64,000 nt of DNA from an uncultured Gammaproteobacteria bacterium (GTDB lineage: Bacteria > Patescibacteriota > Microgenomatia > Daviesbacterales > UBA10151). Below are positions 731-18,900 of the stretch, piece after piece; the stretch's first letter is position 1; the number at the start of each line of letters is the position of its first letter. The translations under genes and the position numbers were made by a program. Location: NCBI GenBank assembly GCA_964504985.1, contig CAZDFU010000002.1, forward strand, positions 11,782 through 75,781. Direction: 5' to 3'. The notes beneath the pieces are model-generated. The model did not search any database, had not been told where the DNA came from, and saw nothing but the letters and a program-made list of their open reading frames with translations.

Positions 731-1105
731 TTACCAGACAAATGCCAGTACTTCCCCTCCTAACTTGTTTTTTCTAGCTTCTTTGTCAGTCATCAATCCT
801 TTTGGAGTTGAAACAATTGCTATACCTAAACCATTCAATACATGAGGTAAACCTTGAACTCCTTTATAAACACGCAGGGAAGGCTTCGAAATTCTTTTAA
901 TATCAGTTATGGCAGCTTTTCTGGCTGTGTATTTTAATGAAACTGTAATTTGTCTGTCCTCCTCTTTAACCCCTTGCAAAAATCCCTCTTTCTCAAGAAG
1001 TTTCATTAACTTAAGGATAAGTTTGGAATATTTTACTGAAACCGTTTGTTTGCCAACCGCATACCCATTTTTTATTCTGATTAAAGCATCTGCAACTGTA
1101 TCCAT
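731..1105 (-). CDS. rpsH: 30S ribosomal protein S8 (uS8)
   Basis: 124-aa ORF; MDTVADALIRIKNG... and C-terminal GGEVLAFVW are typical of S8. Confidence 0.93.
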   Translation of the reverse strand: MDTVADALIRIKNGYAVGKQTVSVKYSKLILKLMKLLEKEGFLQGVKEEDRQITVSLKYTARKAAITDIKRISKPSLRVYKGVQGLPHVLNGLGIAIVSTPKGLMTDKEARKNKLGGEVLAFVW

Positions 1106-6309: not shown

Positions 6310-7064
6310 ATTTTCCCTTCTCTTTTAACGTTTGTTCCTACTCCACCGGAGGTTTTCACTTCTTCACTAGATTCTTTTTTGCCTAATTTATCAATTGTTT
6401 CTTTTGTTAAAAGTAATATTTCATGTTTTAATACTTCATAAGCATTTAATCCGCCTGCCGGTAAAACATTAATATTGGGAATATTTCTAGCAGCTCTAAC
6501 TATATTATCCATTTTGTCAGCTGTTACAATTAAGGTACTCCTTTGTTTCTTTTCTGTGATTGATGAGATTAACTTAAGTATTTCTTTTGTTTTGCCGGTA
6601 ATTTTTTCTAAGCCTGTTAATCCTAAAACATTTTTGTCTGAAGCCTTAGAAGAGAGAGCAGATATTAAAGCTGATCTTCTCATCTTTTTTGGTAAAATTA
6701 ATCTGACCTTTCTTGGTTTTGGTCCAAAAACAATTCCTCCGCCCACAAAAATCGGAGCCCTGATACTTCCATGTCTTGCCCTGCCAGTTCCTTTTTGTCT
6801 AAATATTTTGACTGTTGATCCTTCTACCTCTCCTCTGCCTTTGGTGGAAGCTGTAAAAGTTTTTTGGTTGGTTGTATAAACCCTAACAGCCTGAGTCAAT
6901 AAACTTTTATTAATCTCAGCACCAAAAATTTCCTTTGGCAAGCTTAAGGTTCCGCTGGTTCTCCCGGCCGGAGAATAAACAGGCACTGTTAAACCACCCG
7001 TTCCGCGAGCACGGGAAGCTGCTGGTTTACTAGTCTTTGCAGTTACTTTTCTTTTAACTGGCAT
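6306..7064 (-). CDS. rplD: 50S ribosomal protein L4 (uL4)
   Basis: 252-aa ORF with QKGTGRARHGS L4 signature. Confidence 0.93.
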   Translation of the reverse strand: MPVKRKVTAKTSKPAASRARGTGGLTVPVYSPAGRTSGTLSLPKEIFGAEINKSLLTQAVRVYTTNQKTFTASTKGRGEVEGSTVKIFRQKGTGRARHGSIRAPIFVGGGIVFGPKPRKVRLILPKKMRRSALISALSSKASDKNVLGLTGLEKITGKTKEILKLISSITEKKQRSTLIVTADKMDNIVRAARNIPNINVLPAGGLNAYEVLKHEILLLTKETIDKLGKKESSEEVKTSGGVGTNVKREGKI

Positions 7065-7923
7065 TTTCTTTTACCTCTTCTTTCAGCTCTTGTTTTTGTT
7101 CTTGAGGGTTATCTTGATTTTGTTCTTCTGATTCACCAGCATTTTGTTCTGCTGCTTTTTCTGACTTTTCTGCTTCCTCTTCTCCTTCTTCAAGTTTTTC
7201 CTCAGGCGGGGGAGTATAACCCTTAATTCTGCCTAATTTAGTTATTACCAGCAAACTGTTAATAGGACCTGGAATCCCTCCTTTAACTATCAAATAATTT
7301 TTTACTTTATCTATTCCCACAATTTCCAGATTCTTGATACTTACTTTTTCACTGCCCATATGCCCTGCCATTTTTTTGCCTTTATAAACTCTTCCCGGAG
7401 TAGTTCCAGAACCAACCGCACCTGGAGCTCTGTGTCTGTCTGATTGACCATGAGTCTTAGGTCCACCGGCAAAACCGTGACGTCTTACCCCGCCTTGAAA
7501 ACCTTTACCTTTCGAAACTCCCTGTACTTTAACAGCATCACCTATTGAAAAAACCTGGTTCAGTTTAATTTCTGTTCCAGGTTTTAAAGTTCCGAGCGAA
7601 CCTGTGGTGAGCGTACCTGTACTGAGCGAAGTCGAAGTAGTCGAACCAGCCGGGGAATTTTGTTCATTAATTCTGACTTCCCTAAACCAACGGACAGCCT
7701 GATCAAAGCCTGCTTTTTTAGTATGACCAAGTTGAGGCTTTCTAACTGACTTTTTGGATCCATACCCAAGCTGGATAGCATCATACCCATCTTTGCCATC
7801 TTGTGTTTTGGCTTGAGTGACTAAATTTGGTTGAATTTCCACCACAGTAGCCCCAACCCTTCTGCCCCGTGAGTCATAAGTTGAGGTCATATTTTTCTTA
7901 ATTCCAAGTAATGTATTAGTCAT
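7054..7923 (-). CDS. rplC: 50S ribosomal protein L3 (uL3) with an internal Ser/Thr-rich insertion and ~60-aa acidic C-terminal tail
   Basis: Start chosen at MTNTLLGIKKNMTSTYD (AGGA Shine-Dalgarno 6 nt upstream); the ORF-track N-terminal extension would begin inside a terminator U-tract; conserved L3 blocks present. Confidence 0.88.
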   Translation of the reverse strand: MTNTLLGIKKNMTSTYDSRGRRVGATVVEIQPNLVTQAKTQDGKDGYDAIQLGYGSKKSVRKPQLGHTKKAGFDQAVRWFREVRINEQNSPAGSTTSTSLSTGTLTTGSLGTLKPGTEIKLNQVFSIGDAVKVQGVSKGKGFQGGVRRHGFAGGPKTHGQSDRHRAPGAVGSGTTPGRVYKGKKMAGHMGSEKVSIKNLEIVGIDKVKNYLIVKGGIPGPINSLLVITKLGRIKGYTPPPEEKLEEGEEEAEKSEKAAEQNAGESEEQNQDNPQEQKQELKEEVKENAS

Positions 7924-7948
7924 TTTTGTCCTAGACAATTCAAGCATT

Positions 7949-7990
7949 AAAAAGAGTGAGTCCTTCGGTAAACTCAGGATCTCACTCAGT
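7949..7990 (-). terminator. Rho-independent terminator-like hairpin (GAGTGAG-TCC / GGATCTCACTC, then U5 on minus-strand RNA) 25 nt upstream of the rplC start
   Basis: Read directly from sequence. It sits downstream of the metalloprotease gene and inside the leader from the predicted rplC promoter, so it could be an attenuator. Confidence 0.6.
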
Positions 7991-8086
7991 ATCTCGCCTT
8001 CAATCGTCGTATCGTTTTCCGACGCACGATCTACTGAAATTTTCTTACGTTTTGACGCTAATCAAAAGGCAAAATTTTCTTATAGG

Positions 8087-8116
8087 ATTTTAACACGAAC
8101 GGCGCACAAATTGCAA
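8087..8116 (-). promoter_or_regulatory. Predicted sigma70-type promoter for rplC and downstream ribosomal genes: TTGCAA-N18-TGtTAAAAT
   Basis: -35 at 8116-8111, extended -10 TGnTAAAAT at 8095-8087 on minus strand. Confidence 0.45.
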
Positions 8117-9059: not shown

Positions 9060-9368
9060 TCACATCTTAACTTCAATGTCAACGCCTGCAGGGATTTCTA
9101 AATGCATTAAAGAATCAATTGTTTTTTGAGTAGGCTCAACAATGTCAACCATTCTTTTGTGTGTTTTTATTTCAAATGCTTCTCTGGAATCTTTATCTGT
9201 GTGTGGAGATCTTAAAACAGTAATTCTTTCTATTTTTGTGGGAAGGGGGATAGGACCAACAATTTTAGCACCGGTTCTTAAGGCTGTATCCAATAAGGAC
9301 TCACAGGTATTATCTAATACCCGGTGATCGTAACTTTTCAGTTTTACTCTGATCCGTCCTCTTGGCAT
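9060..9368 (-). CDS. rpsJ: 30S ribosomal protein S10 (uS10)
   Basis: [19 protein letters not shown]... canonical S10. Confidence 0.95.
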
Positions 9369-10718: not shown

Positions 10719-11825
10719 TTAAATTAAGCTAGCGAAAGCACCTCTTAATTTATACCATACTCTTGTACTTAAACTTCCAACCGCTGTTCTCGGGTTAAAC
10801 CTTATATCTTCCTTCGTCAATTTTCTATCCATTAGCTGCCGGATGCATTCTTTAACATCTTTACCTCGAAGTAAATTGAATAATTCACTAACTATCGGTG
10901 CATCAATTCTTCGTTCTCTTGCAAAAGCATATGCTCCTGGTATAGTAGAGAAAGCTTCTATCTCTTTGTCTCTAGATATCTGTTCTATTGTTTTACCTTT
11001 AGCAAATTCTTCGCCAGCCCTTCTATTTCTGGTTCCTTCTTGTATGCAAGATAAATATAAGTCTCCAGTGCCAGCAAGCCCTCTAACAGTTTCCTCGCTT
11101 GCTGCTCCCATGGCTATTACTAACCTGGACATTTCTGCCAATGCCCTAGTATAAAATAATGCCTCGCTGTTTCCAGCTACACCTAATCCTCTAGCAACTC
11201 CAATTCCAAAAGCATAGACATTTTTTAATGCTCCACATGCTTCCACCCCAACAGGATCATCTGATGCATAAATCCTCAGAAAAGAAGCACTAAATGACCG
11301 TTGCAGTTGTTCAATAAGAAAAGGGTTATAGGCAGCAATTACAGTCCCTGTTACCTTTCTTTTAACAAGCTCTTCCGCTTTATTTGGACCTGACCAAATA
11401 GCTATTCTATCTACCAAATCAGGGCTTGGATACCTTTTTAATATAAAAGTGGAAATTGTTGAGTTAACTTCTTTAATTAACCCTTTTGTCCCTATAACAA
11501 GGTTACTGTTACTGCTTAAAAGAGGCCTTTCTCCACCAAGCATCTGTTCTAGGACTAGATGAACTACCCTTGATGGAACAGCTACAATAACTATATCTTT
11601 ACCTGCTACTGCCTCTTCTAAATTATCAGTCGCTCTAATATCTTTTGATAATTTTATACCACCCAACCTTTTACTTACTCTGGTTCTCTGAAATTCTCTT
11701 AAGGCATCAGGATCAGGAAAGAAAGCTGTTGTGTCATGGCCTAAGCCTGCTGATATATCAGCAACAGCACTACCTAAAGCTCCAGCACTCACCACACCTA
11801 CACTTATTAAATGTTCTTTGAACAT
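10719..11825 (-). CDS. gpsA: NAD(P)H-dependent glycerol-3-phosphate dehydrogenase
   Basis: N-terminal Rossmann segment ISVGVVSAGALGSAVA; GDLYLSC...NRRAG segment typical of GpsA; ~368 aa. Confidence 0.8.
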   Translation of the reverse strand: MFKEHLISVGVVSAGALGSAVADISAGLGHDTTAFFPDPDALREFQRTRVSKRLGGIKLSKDIRATDNLEEAVAGKDIVIVAVPSRVVHLVLEQMLGGERPLLSSNSNLVIGTKGLIKEVNSTISTFILKRYPSPDLVDRIAIWSGPNKAEELVKRKVTGTVIAAYNPFLIEQLQRSFSASFLRIYASDDPVGVEACGALKNVYAFGIGVARGLGVAGNSEALFYTRALAEMSRLVIAMGAASEETVRGLAGTGDLYLSCIQEGTRNRRAGEEFAKGKTIEQISRDKEIEAFSTIPGAYAFARERRIDAPIVSELFNLLRGKDVKECIRQLMDRKLTKEDIRFNPRTAVGSLSTRVWYKLRGAFASLI

Positions 11826-11829
11826 GAAA

Positions 11830-13974
11830 TTAATGTTCTACTCTGCCTGTGAAGCCTGAGGATTCAATGATCTTTTGGGTGATGTTAGAAGGCACTGTTT
11901 CATAATGATCTGCCTCCATATAGTATGTTGCCCTGCCTTGAGACATACTTCTTATGGCTGTAGCATAACCATGCATTTCTGCCAAAGGTACTAATGCGAC
12001 TACTACTCTGGCAGTTCCTCTTGTTTCAGATGATAAAATTTGAGCTCTTTTTGCAGACAAGTCACCAATAATTTCTCCTAAAAATTCATCAGGAGTGGTT
12101 ACTTCTACCTTCATAATAGGCTCAAGTAAGATCAAGTCAGCTTTTTTGGCTGCCTCAGAGAGCCCTAATGAGGCAGCAATCTTAAATGCCACCTCTGATG
12201 AGTCAACATCATGAAAAGACCCATCATAAACCACCACTTTAATATCAGTCACAGGGTATCCTGCTAAAATACCTGTATCCTCTTTTTCGGTTACTCCTTT
12301 TTCAATAGGAGGAATAAACTCCCTTGGGATAGCTCCGCCCACAATTTCTGAGGCAAATTCCCTGCCGCTGCCTCTTGGGAGTGGTTCAATTCTTAGCAGA
12401 CAATGACCATATTGGCCACGGCCTCCTGTTTGGCGGATATATTTACCCTCACCCTCAGCTATTTTTGTAATGGTTTCTTTATAGGCAACCTGGGGCTGAC
12501 CAACATTGGCTTCAACTTTAAATTCTCTTTTCATTCTGTCAACCAGAACCTCCAACTGAAGCTCTCCCATGCCAGCAATTATTGTTTGTCCTGTTTCAGC
12601 ATCAGATTTTACTCTAAAAGTGGGGTCTTCCTCAGATAAACGGTTTAAAGCATAGCCTAATTTTTCCTGATCACTCTTTGTTTTTGGTTCTATTGCCAAA
12701 GAAATAACCGGTTCGGGGAATGAAATATTTTCCAAAATTATAGGAGCAGTCTCATCGCAAAGAGTATCTCCAGTTATAGTATCTTTAAGTCCCACTGCTG
12801 CTACAATTTCTCCTGCATATGCTTCCTCGATTTCTTCCCTATCGTTAGCGTGCATCAATAGAAGCCTTCCTACTCTTTCTTTTATTTGTTTTGTAGCATT
12901 ATAAACATATGAACCGCTTTTCAAAGTTCCTGAATAAACTCTGATATAGGTTAATTTACCAACATGAGGATCAACCTGAATTTTAAAAGCTAGAGCTGAT
13001 AAAGGCTGGGTGGAATCTGCTTTCCTTATCTCTTGTTCCTCAGTTCCTGGTTTAAACCCATAAACTTCAGAAATATCTTGCGGGGAGGGTAAATACTCCA
13101 CCACACAATCAAGCATTAACTGAACCCCTTTATTCCTTAAAGAAGACCCTGCTAAAACAGGTACAATTTTATTGTCTATAACTGCTTTCCTTAAAGCCTT
13201 TTTAAGCTCTTCTACTGAGATTTCTTCACCACCAAGATATTTTTCCATTAAGACATCGTCTGTTCCAGAAATTTCTTCCACCAGTTTTTCCCTGTGTTCT
13301 TCTACCTGGGAAACCATATCCGCAGGGATTTCTACCTCATTAAATTTTGCTCCTGTTTGATCACCCTCCCAAATAAAAGCTTTTTTTGTTAAAAGATCAA
13401 CAACACCTTTAAAATCATTTTCTTTACCAATAGGCAGGTTATAGGGCAGTGCATTTGCTCCCAATCTATCCCTGGCAGACTGAATCGTGCCTAGAAAATC
13501 TGCTCCCACCACATCCATTTTGTTGGAAAAAGCAATGAGCGGAACTTTGTATTTATTAGCCTGTCTCCAAACTGTTTCTGTCTGTGATTGAACACCAGAT
13601 GATGAATCCAAAACAATAACTCCACCATCCAAAACCCTCAAGGACCTTTCAACTTCTGCTGTAAAATCAACATGGCCCGGGGTATCAATTAAATTAATTC
13701 TTACTTCAGCATCCTTAAATAGAGCTTCATCCCTTTTGGCTACCCAAAAAGTGGTGATAGCAGCAGAAACAATAGTAATTCCTCTTTCTTTTTCCTGCTC
13801 CATCCAGTCAGTGGTAGTAGTGCCTTCATCAATATCTCCAATTTTATAGGTTCTGCCAGTATAAAATAGGATTCTCTCTGTAGTGGTAGTTTTACCTGCA
13901 TCAATATGGGCAATAATACCAATGTTTCTGATCCTATCTAATGGGAAATCTCTTTTTGTTTTTTGAACAGCCAT
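11830..13974 (-). CDS. fusA: Elongation factor G
   Basis: 714 aa; [20 protein letters not shown]-domain; EF-G domains II-V. Confidence 0.95.
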
Positions 13975-15963: not shown

Positions 15964-18900
15964 TTAATTATCAACTTTAGCCCTTTCGGAGCTAGTTGGT
16001 ATTAAACGCCCTATTATAACATTTTCCTTAAGCCCTATCAGCTTATCAAGCTTACCAGATATGGCAGCTTCAGCCAGCACGGAAGTTGTTTCCTGGAAGG
16101 ATGCAGATGATAAGAAACTCTCGGTTTGCAAAGAAGCCCGGGTAATACCTAAAATTACCACCTCAGCAGTTGCAGGCTCTCCGCCCTCTACCAGAACCCT
16201 TTTATTTTCGTCTTCAAACCGCAGCTTATCAATAATCTCACCAGGTAATAAGTTAGTATCACCTTGTGACTCAACTTTAACCTTATCAGACATCTTTCTG
16301 ACAATTACCTCAAAATGTTTCTCGTTTATTGGAACACCCTGGGATTCATAAACAGAACGTACCTCATCAACTATATATCTTTGAGCTGCCCTTAAACCCT
16401 GAATCCGTAATGTTTCTTTTACGTCTATATGCCCTGTTGCCAAAACAGTCCCTGCATCTATTAATTGTCCTTCCTCAACTGACAAAGCAGAGGTTGCAGG
16501 AACAATATATTCTCTTTCCTCATGGGGTTTTTGGGTTGTCCTGACCCTTACCCTTGTTCCCAGTTCTGTCTCAATTATGGAAACTTTACCTGCAATTTCA
16601 GACATTGGGGCCACAATCTTGGGAGTTCTAGCCTCATATAATTCTTCAACTCTTGGTAAACCCTGGGTAATATCCAAACCTACAATTCCTCCGGTGTGGA
16701 AAGTACGCATGGTTAGTTGTGTCCCAGGCTCACCTATAGCCTGGGCAGCTACTACTCCAACAGGCGTCCCGATTGCTACCAGTTCTCTGGTTGTTAAATC
16801 AGCTCCATAGCAGCTCTTACAAATCCCATATTTTGCCTCGCAAGTTAAAGGAGAACGGGCTAAAACCTTAGTTACTAAAGCTTGGAGTATCTTAAGAATA
16901 ATCTCTTCTGTTAGAAGAGTTCCTGCTTTAACTATAACTTTACGGCTGCCTGGCTCATTAATATTTTCCGAAAGTATGCGCCCTAATAACTTTTCTCTGG
17001 CATTACTAAAAGCGTTTTTCGATATTTCATATTCTAAGCTGGCAGTAGTCCCGCAGTCATCCATCCTAACAATCACATCATGTGCTACATCTACCAACCT
17101 TCTGGTCAAATACCCTGCATCTGCAGTTTTCAAGGCTTTATCAGCTACTCCTTTTCTGGCACCTCTGGCTGATGTAAAGTACTCAAAAACAGAAAGACCT
17201 TGTCTGTAATTTGATTTGGTTGGGAGTTCCACAATCTTTCCTGTTGGATCAGTTGATAAACCTCTCATAGCAGAAAGCTGCTTTGCCTGATCACGGGACC
17301 CTCTTGCACCAGCCTCCACCATCATTCTAATAGGATTATCTGTTTCCAGATAATCCCAGGTGGCTGAGGCTAAATCTTCTGTTATTTTGATCCAAACCAT
17401 TTGAGAAAGTTGTGATTTTTCCTGCGGAGTAATCAACCCCTTTGCCACGTTTCCTTCAATCTTAGCAATCTCTGCCTCTGCCTCATCCAGATATTTCTGT
17501 TTATCAGGCACAATTTTAGCATCAAAGATGGAAATAGATACTCCAGCAATAGTTGCTCCCCAAAATCCTATTGACTTGATATTATCAATAAGACCGGCGA
17601 CAGCTTCCTTATCCAAAACCTGGGTAGCTTTAAGGATGATATCACGAATAGTAATTCCTTTAATAACTGAGTTTAGAAATCTCATATGGGGAGGGAGAGC
17701 CTCATTGAATAAAATCCTTCCAACTGATGTCTCAATAACTTCCTTATCAATTCTGACTTTAACTTTCTCTCTAACAGAAACTTTTCCTATTTGGTAAGCC
17801 CTAATTGCATCTTCCCCGCTAAGAAAAAACTTGGCATCTTCCCCTTCTTTTGGATTATCAAGCATGGTAATGTAGTAACAACCCAAGGCCATTTCCCTGT
17901 TTGGAACAGTTATTGGCTGAGCATTAGCCGGGCCAAAGATATTTTCCTTTGCCATCATCAAATCCTTTGCTTCTTCCTGGGCTTTAGCTGATAAGGGCAC
18001 ATGAACTGCCATTTGATCCCCGTCAAAATCAGCATTAAAACCAGCACAAATACAAGGATGGATCTGAATTGCATTACCATCAACTAAAACAGGGAAAAAC
18101 GCCTGGATACCTAATCTGTGCAGGGTAGGAGCACGGTTTATTAAGATTGGATGGCCGTCAATAATTTCTTCTAAAATATCCCAAACCTCTGGTGGTCTTC
18201 CCTCTAAAACATTCTTTGCGCCTTTGACATTTGAGGACAGCCCTCTTGCTATCATTTCCCTTAAAACAAAAGGCTTAAACATCTCCAAAGCCATTTCCTT
18301 GGGTAAACCTACTTGATCAAGCCTCAGTTTAGGACCCACTACAATTACAGACCTTCCTGAATAATCAACACGCTTACCGAGTAAGTTTTGTCTAAACCTG
18401 CCTTGTTTTCCCCGCAACATATCAGAAAGGGATCTTAAGACATGTGATGTAACAGGACCTCCTCTTCTGGAGGTTCTGGAAGATGCATCAATCAAGCTAT
18501 CAACTGCTTCCTGAAGCATTCTTTTTTCGTTACGCAAAATTATTTCAGGAGCACCCAAGTTTATCAATCTATTCAAACGGTTATTTCTATTTATAACCCT
18601 TCTATATAAATCGTTTAAATCCGAGGTGGCAAAACGGCCTCCTGGGAGTTGTACCATTGGACGAAGGTCAGGAGGTAAAACTGGTAAAACCCTCAAAACC
18701 AGCCAATCTGATGAGATACCTGAACCGCGCATTCCCTCGACTACCCTCAATCTTTTGGTGGCCTTGATATGTTTTTGGCCTGTGGATTTTCTAACTTCTT
18801 CCCTAAGAGATGCTGATAATTTATCTAAATCCAGTTTTTGTAATACTTCAAGAATACTTTCTGCTCCCATTCCTAAAGCGACAAAGCCGGAAACCCCATA

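Follow-up and report, generated by a model that had tools for sequence, protein, structure and literature searches.

What controls transcription into rplC, and into the ribosomal-protein genes behind it, when a promoter and a terminator-like hairpin both lie immediately in front of them? The question is raised by a stretch of 64,000 nucleotides (nt) from contig CAZDFU010000002.1 (hereafter the window, meaning this whole stretch), whose nearest public relatives are Candidatus Daviesbacteria, members of the Candidate Phyla Radiation (CPR). Its minus strand carries, in this order, tuf (10657-9428), rpsJ (9368-9060), a metalloprotease gene (8991-8140), an intergenic region of 216 nt, and rplC. A first-pass annotation had proposed an internal promoter there, the ~155-nt leader of which holds the hairpin. 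The feedback that regulates ribosomal-protein operons has been studied at length in Escherichia coli, but little is known of it elsewhere; to our knowledge, CPR organisms cannot be cultured and their gene regulation is almost unexplored. Here, we present evidence that the region very probably contains a conserved cis-acting attenuator leader of the rplC operon. We also discuss a fuller model, towards which the balance tips slightly, in which this attenuator would be autogenous and sensed by ribosomal protein S8.

Promoter, terminator and leader family

The transcription unit in front of rplC comprises the following features.

8111-8116, minus strand: -35 hexamer TTGCAA (consensus scan and conservation in relatives)
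8087-8095, minus strand: extended -10 element TGT-TAAAAT (consensus scan and conservation in relatives)
8079-8080, minus strand: predicted transcription start (A/G, 7-8 nt past the -10; promoter geometry and a conserved YYYYUWAG after the -10 in relatives)
8043-8074, minus strand: P0, 5'-proximal hairpin with the core TTTTGA-TTAGCG-TCAAAA at 8067-8050 (fold)
7949-8039, minus strand: conserved leader core (covariance model R1, 93 bits; sole copy in the window)
7954-7987, minus strand: terminator hairpin GAGUGAG(A)UCC - 13-nt loop - GGACUCACUC (sequence and fold)
7949-7953, minus strand: U-tract, T5 (read from the sequence)
7921-7932, minus strand: rplC ribosome-binding region (AGGA 7932-7929, ATG 7923-7921)
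7054-7923, minus strand: rplC (L3), first gene after the leader (Pfam Ribosomal_L3)

The promoter TTGCAA-N18-TGT-TAAAAT (8116-8087) is present as first described, the consensus scan giving a spacer of 18 nt on the minus strand. Judged on the window sequence alone it stands at chance level, with 50 matches of at least 9/12 in 16 kilobases (kb) vs 39.5 ± 7.4 in shuffled sequences. Its conservation was assessed in 51 informative upstream regions aligned on the -10. The -35 hexamer of these relatives is TTGCAT (30), TTGCAA (15) or TTGCTT (5), together 50 of the 51 sequences, and the -10 hexamer is TAAAAT (27), TAGAAT (15) or TACAAT (6); TGT precedes the -10 in 45 of the 52 listed sequences, and the spacer of 17-18 nt is free in sequence. 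Overall, the two hexamers and the TG were counted as conserved in 51/51. Fixed hexamers flanking a drifting spacer are evidence for a functional promoter, predicted to be of the sigma-70 type with an extended -10. A start near 8080 gives a leader of ~157 nt, close to the length first proposed. A hairpin at the position of P0 is found in all relatives except L084 and L092, with sequences that are unrelated between members, and is possibly a 5' stabiliser.

Written as DNA, the terminator reads GAGTGAG(A)TCC / GGACTCACTC, a stem of 10 base pairs (bp) at 7987-7954, and with its T5 it ends 25 nt before the rplC ATG (7923), again as described. The AGGA Shine-Dalgarno sequence (7932-7929) lies 16 nt past the T-run, and not 8 nt as had been stated. 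The hairpin was not picked up by the terminator scan, because of its bulge and long loop. Folding of the leader (7924-8085), a check that the first-pass annotation had itself suggested, gave -42.7 kcal/mol, which is better than shuffled sequences (z = -3.1). A terminator is present in every complete member of the family, with 9-19 bp, a folding energy of -11 to -23 (mean -16.4) kcal/mol, and a following run of T5-T8. The base of its stem, GAGUG/CACUC, is nearly invariant, and compensatory changes occur at five pairs, among them column pairs 113-173 (GC 38, CG 8, UA 4) and 116-169 (CG 21, UA 21). Hairpin and U-tract thus have the sequence make-up of an intrinsic (Rho-independent) terminator, and once the relatives are compared, the predicted promoter and the terminator hairpin are both conserved far beyond chance.

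The family comprises 52 distinct related sequences in which promoter, 5' hairpin, an 88-position core and an intrinsic terminator precede rplC. Scanning metagenomes with a gapped pattern of 24 bases yielded 52 loci, and rplC follows the T-run on the same strand in all 47 of those with enough downstream DNA. Nine loci were fetched through L3 or the protease and not through the motif (L001, L084, L085, L089, L090, L144, L145, L146 and L147), and the leader unit is present in 9/9. In these nine unbiased loci the pairwise identity of the core (72-78%) is on a par with that over the first 150 nt of rplC (73%). Matches to L3 in the genome collection were mainly gammaproteobacterial, with L001 as the only close relative among them. 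Covariance model R1, built from 48 distinct cores, matches each related locus exactly once and finds nothing in 0.56 Mb of DNA that covers 82 rplC loci from other lineages. Rfam 15 holds no family that matches the leader region (E ≤ 10), the whole window (gathering scores) or the nine relatives (E ≤ 1), and no description of such a leader was found in the literature searched.

The same loci show with which gene the unit belongs. Its upstream neighbour may be a sigma-70-region-4 open reading frame (ORF), a GDSL lipase gene, a reverse-strand ORF, a protease gene or rpsJ directly. L001 has no protease: rpsJ and rplC are separated by 252 nt that hold the same promoter, conserved block, hairpin and T-run. 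L084 has the protease and no rpsJ upstream, and the promoter-leader-terminator unit again stands before rplC. The hairpin is thus not a feature of the protease gene, as the unit stays with rplC irrespective of its upstream neighbour.

Across the family the distance from T-run to rplC ATG has a median of 12 nt and a range of 0-108 nt; it is 6-25 nt in most members, and in L125 and L146 the T-run directly abuts the rplC start (0 nt). In most members, including the window, the gap between U-tract and ATG is too short for another promoter, and rplC transcripts must therefore read through the terminator. This is in line with the proposal that the hairpin gates entry into rplC. Conservation of the arrangement with rplC in ~50 relatives is what one would expect of a regulated attenuator, whose hallmark is a conserved terminator behind a likewise conserved promoter of the operon itself.

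The same geometry bears on two other accounts. A strong promoter and a terminator of its own, enclosing ~130 nt, are also typical of an independent small RNA gene, whose transcript (for example an S8 sponge or another trans-acting RNA) would be the product and whose adjacency to rplC would be mere synteny. The short distance from U-tract to rplC, 0 nt in L125 and L146, leaves no place for any other rplC promoter, and the element was never found away from rplC, so that we consider this account highly improbable. Alternatively, a constitutive promoter and 5' untranslated region (UTR) could carry a leaky terminator that insulates rplC or fixes its expression level, with helices serving mRNA stability or processing independently of any signal. 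As a hot spot for the insertion of foreign genes, the interval from rpsJ to rplC is a place where insulation might be of use; yet the terminator of every member comes after the promoter of the operon itself, where an insulator would be misplaced.

Some further observations concern the terminator and the rplC start. About one-third of members (e.g. the window at 7964-7978; L089, L111, L137, L144) carry the terminator loop motif CCUGAG-N-AGUCGAAGG, which can form tandem G·A pairs; the remaining members have plain hairpins. Directly after the U-tract there is a conserved N-R-U-G-S (window 7945-7948), as in AAUGC, UGUGG, AGUGC and GUUGG. In L125 and L146 its AUG is the rplC start codon itself, and in the window an in-frame ATG after the T-run (7947) is picked by ORF callers. 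Possible roles are a Shine-Dalgarno-like UGG, a release site or a relic start codon; an upstream start codon was considered and rejected, as members differ in its frame with respect to rplC and several instances read GUG-UAA. The rplC start is annotated inconsistently in public records (7923 vs 7890 in the window; L145 1201; L146 1201). The NCBI L3 protein of the window genome and the L146 call begin at the second Met (MTSTY...), and the L145 call extends upstream through the leader. The L3 N-terminus MTNTLLGIKK is kept in relatives, and the conserved form MxNTLLGIKK supports the ATG at 7923 as the likely start.

Two alternative helices

Between promoter and hairpin lies a structured domain that the first-pass annotation did not include. 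It contains two alternative helices, formed by the following strands.

8032-8037, minus strand: P1 5' strand UCAGUA (pairs with UACUGA at 7986-7991)
7986-7991, minus strand: P1 3' strand UACUGA (its last two bases, 7987 and 7986, are the first two of the terminator stem)
8004-8029, minus strand: P2 hairpin of state A, UCGU-G-CGUC / loop / G-AU-ACG-ACGA (RNAalifold)
7992-7997, minus strand: P2alt 3' strand of state B, GCGA plus GA (pairs with UCGU at 8026-8029; tandem G·A against G9 A10)

In state A the P2 hairpin is formed, for which RNAalifold gives the family form UCGY-G-CGUC...G-AU-ACG-RCGA. Its pairing can be read directly from the covariation of the members: pair 14-52 (core positions) is C-G in 29, U-A in 16 and U-G in 6, never C-A and broken in none; L146 and L147 have U-A in place of C-G at pair 12-54, and L144 has U-G in place of U-A at pair 11-55. 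In state B the same UCGY strand pairs with the linker, giving a continuous helix of ~12 bp (UCAGUA-GA-UCGY / RCGA-GA-UACUGA) that includes P1, which is nearly invariant with U·G variants in L141 and L147. This second helix covaries as well. The P2alt partner of C14 is G in 28/28, and an A partner occurs only with U14; in the standard register the pair formed by position 14 is CG in 27, UG in 10 and UA in 6, and the shifted-register variants ACGUU-UAC, CACAA-UU-UAC and CACAG-UU-GC preserve the P2alt pairing. In L146 and L147, the change of C12 to U is matched by G to A in both alternative partners. Two mutually exclusive helices, each of them kept by compensation, indicate a switch.

The switch appears to be coupled to the terminator through the two bases that P1 shares with it. 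In ViennaRNA calculations, state B is the minimum free energy structure of 44/47 members, on average 2.5 kcal/mol better than state A; the terminator lacks its two bottom pairs in state B and is complete in state A. When the lower helix of P2 is held closed, which is what a bound protein would achieve, the mean probability of the bottom G-C pair of the terminator rises from 0.46 to 0.90 (n = 52).

These results return us to the account of a constitutive leader with signal-independent helices. That the two states differ by 2 terminator bp suits it, as does P0, which looks like a 5' stabiliser; but bulged and looped nucleotides are nearly invariant and two exclusive helices are kept by compensation, and stability alone explains neither. 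Together with the position of the terminator behind the operon's own promoter, this makes a purely constitutive role improbable. A bistable RNA with states within 1-3 kcal/mol of each other and an expression platform that ends in an intrinsic terminator would also suit a riboswitch, in which a small molecule or ion (e.g. a growth-rate signal) controls the terminator. Here, the conserved unpaired nucleotides are bulges of one helix only, and the linker (11-48 nt) and apical loop (4 to ~40 nt) vary so much in length and sequence across members that a conserved pocket is not apparent. The context is purely one of ribosomal-protein genes, and no Rfam riboswitch matches; a riboswitch is thus very improbable.

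Two further features of the core were noted. The tandem G9A10/G88A89 was considered as a kink-turn and rejected, as its 'bulge' would measure 11-48 nt and positions 88-89 vary (GA, AA, UU, CU, UA). The sequence GAUAC occurs twice in the core, in the S8-like site described below (8009-8013) and in the P1 3' strand (7988-7993, GA-UACUGA). Combined with AGUA from the 5' strand of P1, the second GAUAC looks like half of an S8 site of the E. coli type; a compatible upper helix is missing, and this second copy is probably a by-product of the alternative pairing.

The S8-like site and the candidate effector

Which protein might hold such a switch in one state? The invariant nucleotides of P2 suggest ribosomal protein S8, the gene of which lies in the same co-directional cluster.

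8021-8025, minus strand: 5' half of the S8-site mimic, G15 C16 G17 U18 C19 (~16S 595-599; invariant in all members)
8008-8013, minus strand: 3' half of the S8-site mimic, G46 A47 U48 A49 C50 G51 (~16S 639-644; invariant in all members)
731-1105, minus strand: rpsH (S8; Pfam Ribosomal_S8, E = 1e-42), 6.9 kb downstream of the leader

The core of P2 consists of a bulged G15, the pairs C16-G51 and G17-C50, U18 opposite A47, and C19-G46, with two extra bases among A47, U48 and A49. Its equivalents in E. coli 16S rRNA (numbering checked on the gene) are A595, A596-U644, G597-C643, U598/A640, U641, A642 and C599-G639. The S8 core is built on the triples 595-(596-644) and (G597-C643)-U641 and on the invariant A642, and in Thermus thermophilus the first triple is G595-(C596-G644) (PMC4176348). 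In sequence, G15-(C16-G51) of the leader is the exact T. thermophilus form of this triple. The identity to the S8 core is directly observed, and the invariance of the mimic extends to positions that were left free by the search pattern. In known S8 operators the core is invariant and the distal stem variable (PMC3616713). The same is true of P2, in which the lower helix of 5-6 bp covaries; in three members a GAGA tetraloop stands directly on C19-G46.

A strict, Thermus-type descriptor (GCGUC...GAUACG, with 4 bp or more beneath) has one match in the window, at the leader, vs 0.015 expected per shuffled window. A loose descriptor gives ~2 matches per shuffled window, and the argument therefore rests on the invariant nucleotides of the family and not on one occurrence. 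A second loose match in the window at 16250-16272 (minus strand), inside a large coding region (AAGTTGAGTC...GATACTAACTT), fits the ~2 matches per window expected by chance. The S8 descriptor scan found no S8-like site near rplE (1829).

Both the protein and its gene are consistent with this assignment. The conserved S-T-S segment of S8 contacts A642 (PMC4176348), and the S8 protein of the window carries a matching VSTPKG segment. The cluster is tightly packed, with the operon order rplC-rplD-rplW-rplB ... rplE-rpsN-rpsH-rplF. In all related loci of sufficient length (9/9), rpsH is likewise found on the strand of the leader, 6.3-7.0 kb downstream. The window scan found no strong terminator-like site between leader and rpsH, and the two are presumably co-transcribed. 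As a conserved and structured 5' UTR of a ribosomal-protein operon, with covariation and apparent mimicry of rRNA, the element has, at the level of sequence, the features by which a ribosomal-protein leader is recognised.

The same conserved attenuator leader could instead be sensed by L4 or L3, and L4 was the controller that had first been proposed. There is a faint likeness of GCGUC-GGAAA...CGAUAC to 23S 298-323, which we take to be the L4/L24 site; it is a weak lead only, as that region of 23S folds as two hairpins, unlike P2. The genes rplC and rplD stand directly behind the leader. Precedents for such control exist: L4 acts together with NusA to terminate transcription within the E. coli S10 leader (PMC3616713; PMC10931766), and for Archaeoglobi an L4 leader candidate before rplC has been put forward (PMC7247131). 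Neither in k-mers nor in structure does the leader match 23S rRNA better than chance, no Rfam family matches the leader, and the invariant P2 loop equals the S8 core nucleotide for nucleotide. The leader shares two 8-mers with the 16S, 23S and 5S rRNA of E. coli, vs 4.8 for shuffled sequences, although a split S8 core is invisible to such a test. With no detectable likeness to the L4 site and a match to the S8 site of 16S helix 21, S8 is the better candidate effector, and control by L4 or L3 is unlikely.

In the model that we favour, a sigma-70-type promoter would start a leader of ~157 nt composed of P0, P2 with its S8-site mimic, the linker and the terminator. In state A, UCGY would pair with RCGA of the P2 3' strand, so that the S8-site hairpin is complete and the terminator stem is free down to the U-tract. 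In state B, UCGY would pair with the second RCGA in the linker and, with P1 and the tandem G·A, take the two bottom pairs of the terminator. Free S8, when in excess of available 16S rRNA, would bind P2 and lock state A, as its binding would need the lower helix of P2 and would block invasion by the linker strand; the full terminator would then stop transcription before rplC. With S8 taken up by 16S rRNA, the zipper helix of state B would form, the terminator would be weakened, and the operon of ~7 kb including rpsH would be transcribed. Since the start codon usually lies ~12 nt past the U-tract, the hairpin may also hinder the initiation of translation. The parts of this model that we infer are that S8 binds, which way the switch turns and how it affects termination.

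Several points weigh against this model or against the evidence for it. States A and B differ by just two terminator bp in the modelled structures, and their consequence for termination is a predicted one. The upper helix of P2 has 1-2 bp plus a loop in many members and is much shorter than helix 21. The S8 likeness is one recognised post hoc, after the structure had been viewed; the comparison was made with 16S rRNA from two other lineages, E. coli and T. thermophilus; and because matches to the loose descriptor are common, the S8 match could be fortuitous. Most members were retrieved by a pattern that fixes 24 core positions, and the invariance at those positions is therefore that of the nine unbiased loci. 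Finally, the members are phylogenetically related and not independent, so that counts of covariation overstate the number of events.

Genomic setting and relation to known regulatory RNAs

Beyond the leader, several features of rplC and its surroundings were noted. L3 (7054-7923, minus strand) has a low-complexity insertion (NSPAGSTTSTSLSTGTLTTGSLGT) and an acidic, lysine-rich C-terminal tail of ~60 aa, and typical bacterial L3 is without the tail. A gene for a gpsA-like NAD-dependent glycerol-3-phosphate dehydrogenase (10719-11825, minus strand) lies between fusA (11830-13974) and tuf, and is a further non-ribosomal insert within the str-S10 region. At Rfam gathering scores, no family, and no tRNA, rRNA or known riboswitch, was detected in the whole 64-kb window.

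Daviesbacteria have a hot spot for insertions where rpsJ meets the rplC leader (L085-L090, L144-L147; P0233 by gene table); the insert is, depending on locus, a small sigma-70 region-4 ORF, a GDSL lipase, a PAS-domain protein, a reverse-strand ORF, a protease, or none. In the window it is a secreted matrixin-type (M10) protease of 283 aa with a signal peptide. A terminator-like hairpin (9067-9043, minus strand) overlaps the rpsJ stop, TTGACC-N17-TATATA lies 5' of the protease gene, and the protease appears to be its own transcription unit. A role for it in the leader system was rejected because a 70%-identical homologue (P0006) is not adjacent to rplC; close homologues (70% identity) are located elsewhere in other genomes. 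An exact-sequence search with the window protease and its 100% identical database entry returned no contig.

Outside the family, a more distant lineage (L002, 3810-4000; L3 44% identical) has the order tuf-rpsJ, 191 nt, rplC. There the R1-type leader is absent, and a different terminator-like hairpin, GGTAGCC-TAAT-GGCTATC plus T8, lies ~50 nt before rplC. Judging from this sequence, terminators before rplC may be more widespread, with other sensor domains.

Among known systems, the E. coli spc operator and 16S helix 21 share with the leader the asymmetric loop with a purine at 595, the 596-644 pair, G597-C643, U598/A640, U641 and A642. The operator also resembles it in having a variable distal stem and in lying on the mRNA that encodes S8, and feedback by rRNA mimicry is presumed for the leader. 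The spc operator overlaps the rplE start and represses translation, whereas in the leader the site precedes rplC, with rpsH 6.9 kb downstream, its upper helix is very short, and an intrinsic terminator and an alternative helix are coupled to it. Its core is of the Thermus type, G-(C-G), and not of the E. coli type, A-(A-U).

In position, the comparison first drawn with the S10 leader of E. coli holds. Both leaders are long and structured and have a Rho-independent terminator some tens of nt ahead of the first cistron, in operons that include rplC and rplD, and the dual control of transcription and translation seen in the S10 leader (PMC10931766) is a possible parallel. The S10 leader consists of five hairpins (HA-HG nomenclature) in front of rpsJ and is bound by L4; the present leader carries an S8-like site and precedes rplC, with rpsJ (9060-9368) upstream on a separate unit, and is therefore probably not its homologue. 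No similarity between the two was detected, on the basis of Rfam 15 matches and without a direct alignment to the E. coli leader.

The closest mechanistic precedent is the infC-rpmI-rplT leader of Bacillus subtilis (L20 attenuation; PMC1865079), in which L20 is thought to bind an rRNA-like site and to favour the terminator over a competing structure (PMC1865079). It differs in protein, RNA and operon, and in the leader described here the competing helix overlaps the terminator by 2 nt. The Archaeoglobi L4 leader candidate (PMC7247131) is likewise conserved and stands directly before rplC(-rplD-rplW-rplB), with no rpsJ at the head of the operon; it is archaeal, has a different motif (in Rfam, with no match here) and has its ligand assigned by precedent only. 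From these comparisons, the leader appears to be a member of neither the S10 or L20 leader families nor the spc operator RNA family, and to join an S8 mimic to a terminator.

The regulatory RNAs of the E. coli S10 and spc operons are narrowly distributed (PMC3616713), and the regulation of spc by S8 outside Gammaproteobacteria was stated as unknown in a 2024 review (PMC10931766). If the S8 model is true, the leader would be the first S8-dependent attenuator and the first ribosomal leader described in the CPR, and would show, for one lineage at least, by what means S8 feedback on spc operates beyond Gammaproteobacteria. Tentatively, and with a little less than even confidence, we suggest that in this CPR lineage one bistable S8-sensing switch heads a fused S10-spc cluster and controls ~20 ribosomal-protein genes by attenuation, replacing the L4 and translational S8 circuits of E. 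coli. With its recognisable S8 mimic and readable expression platform, the leader is a concrete and testable CPR candidate, and its covariance model lets annotators mark the true operon start and the rplC start codon in Daviesbacteria genomes.

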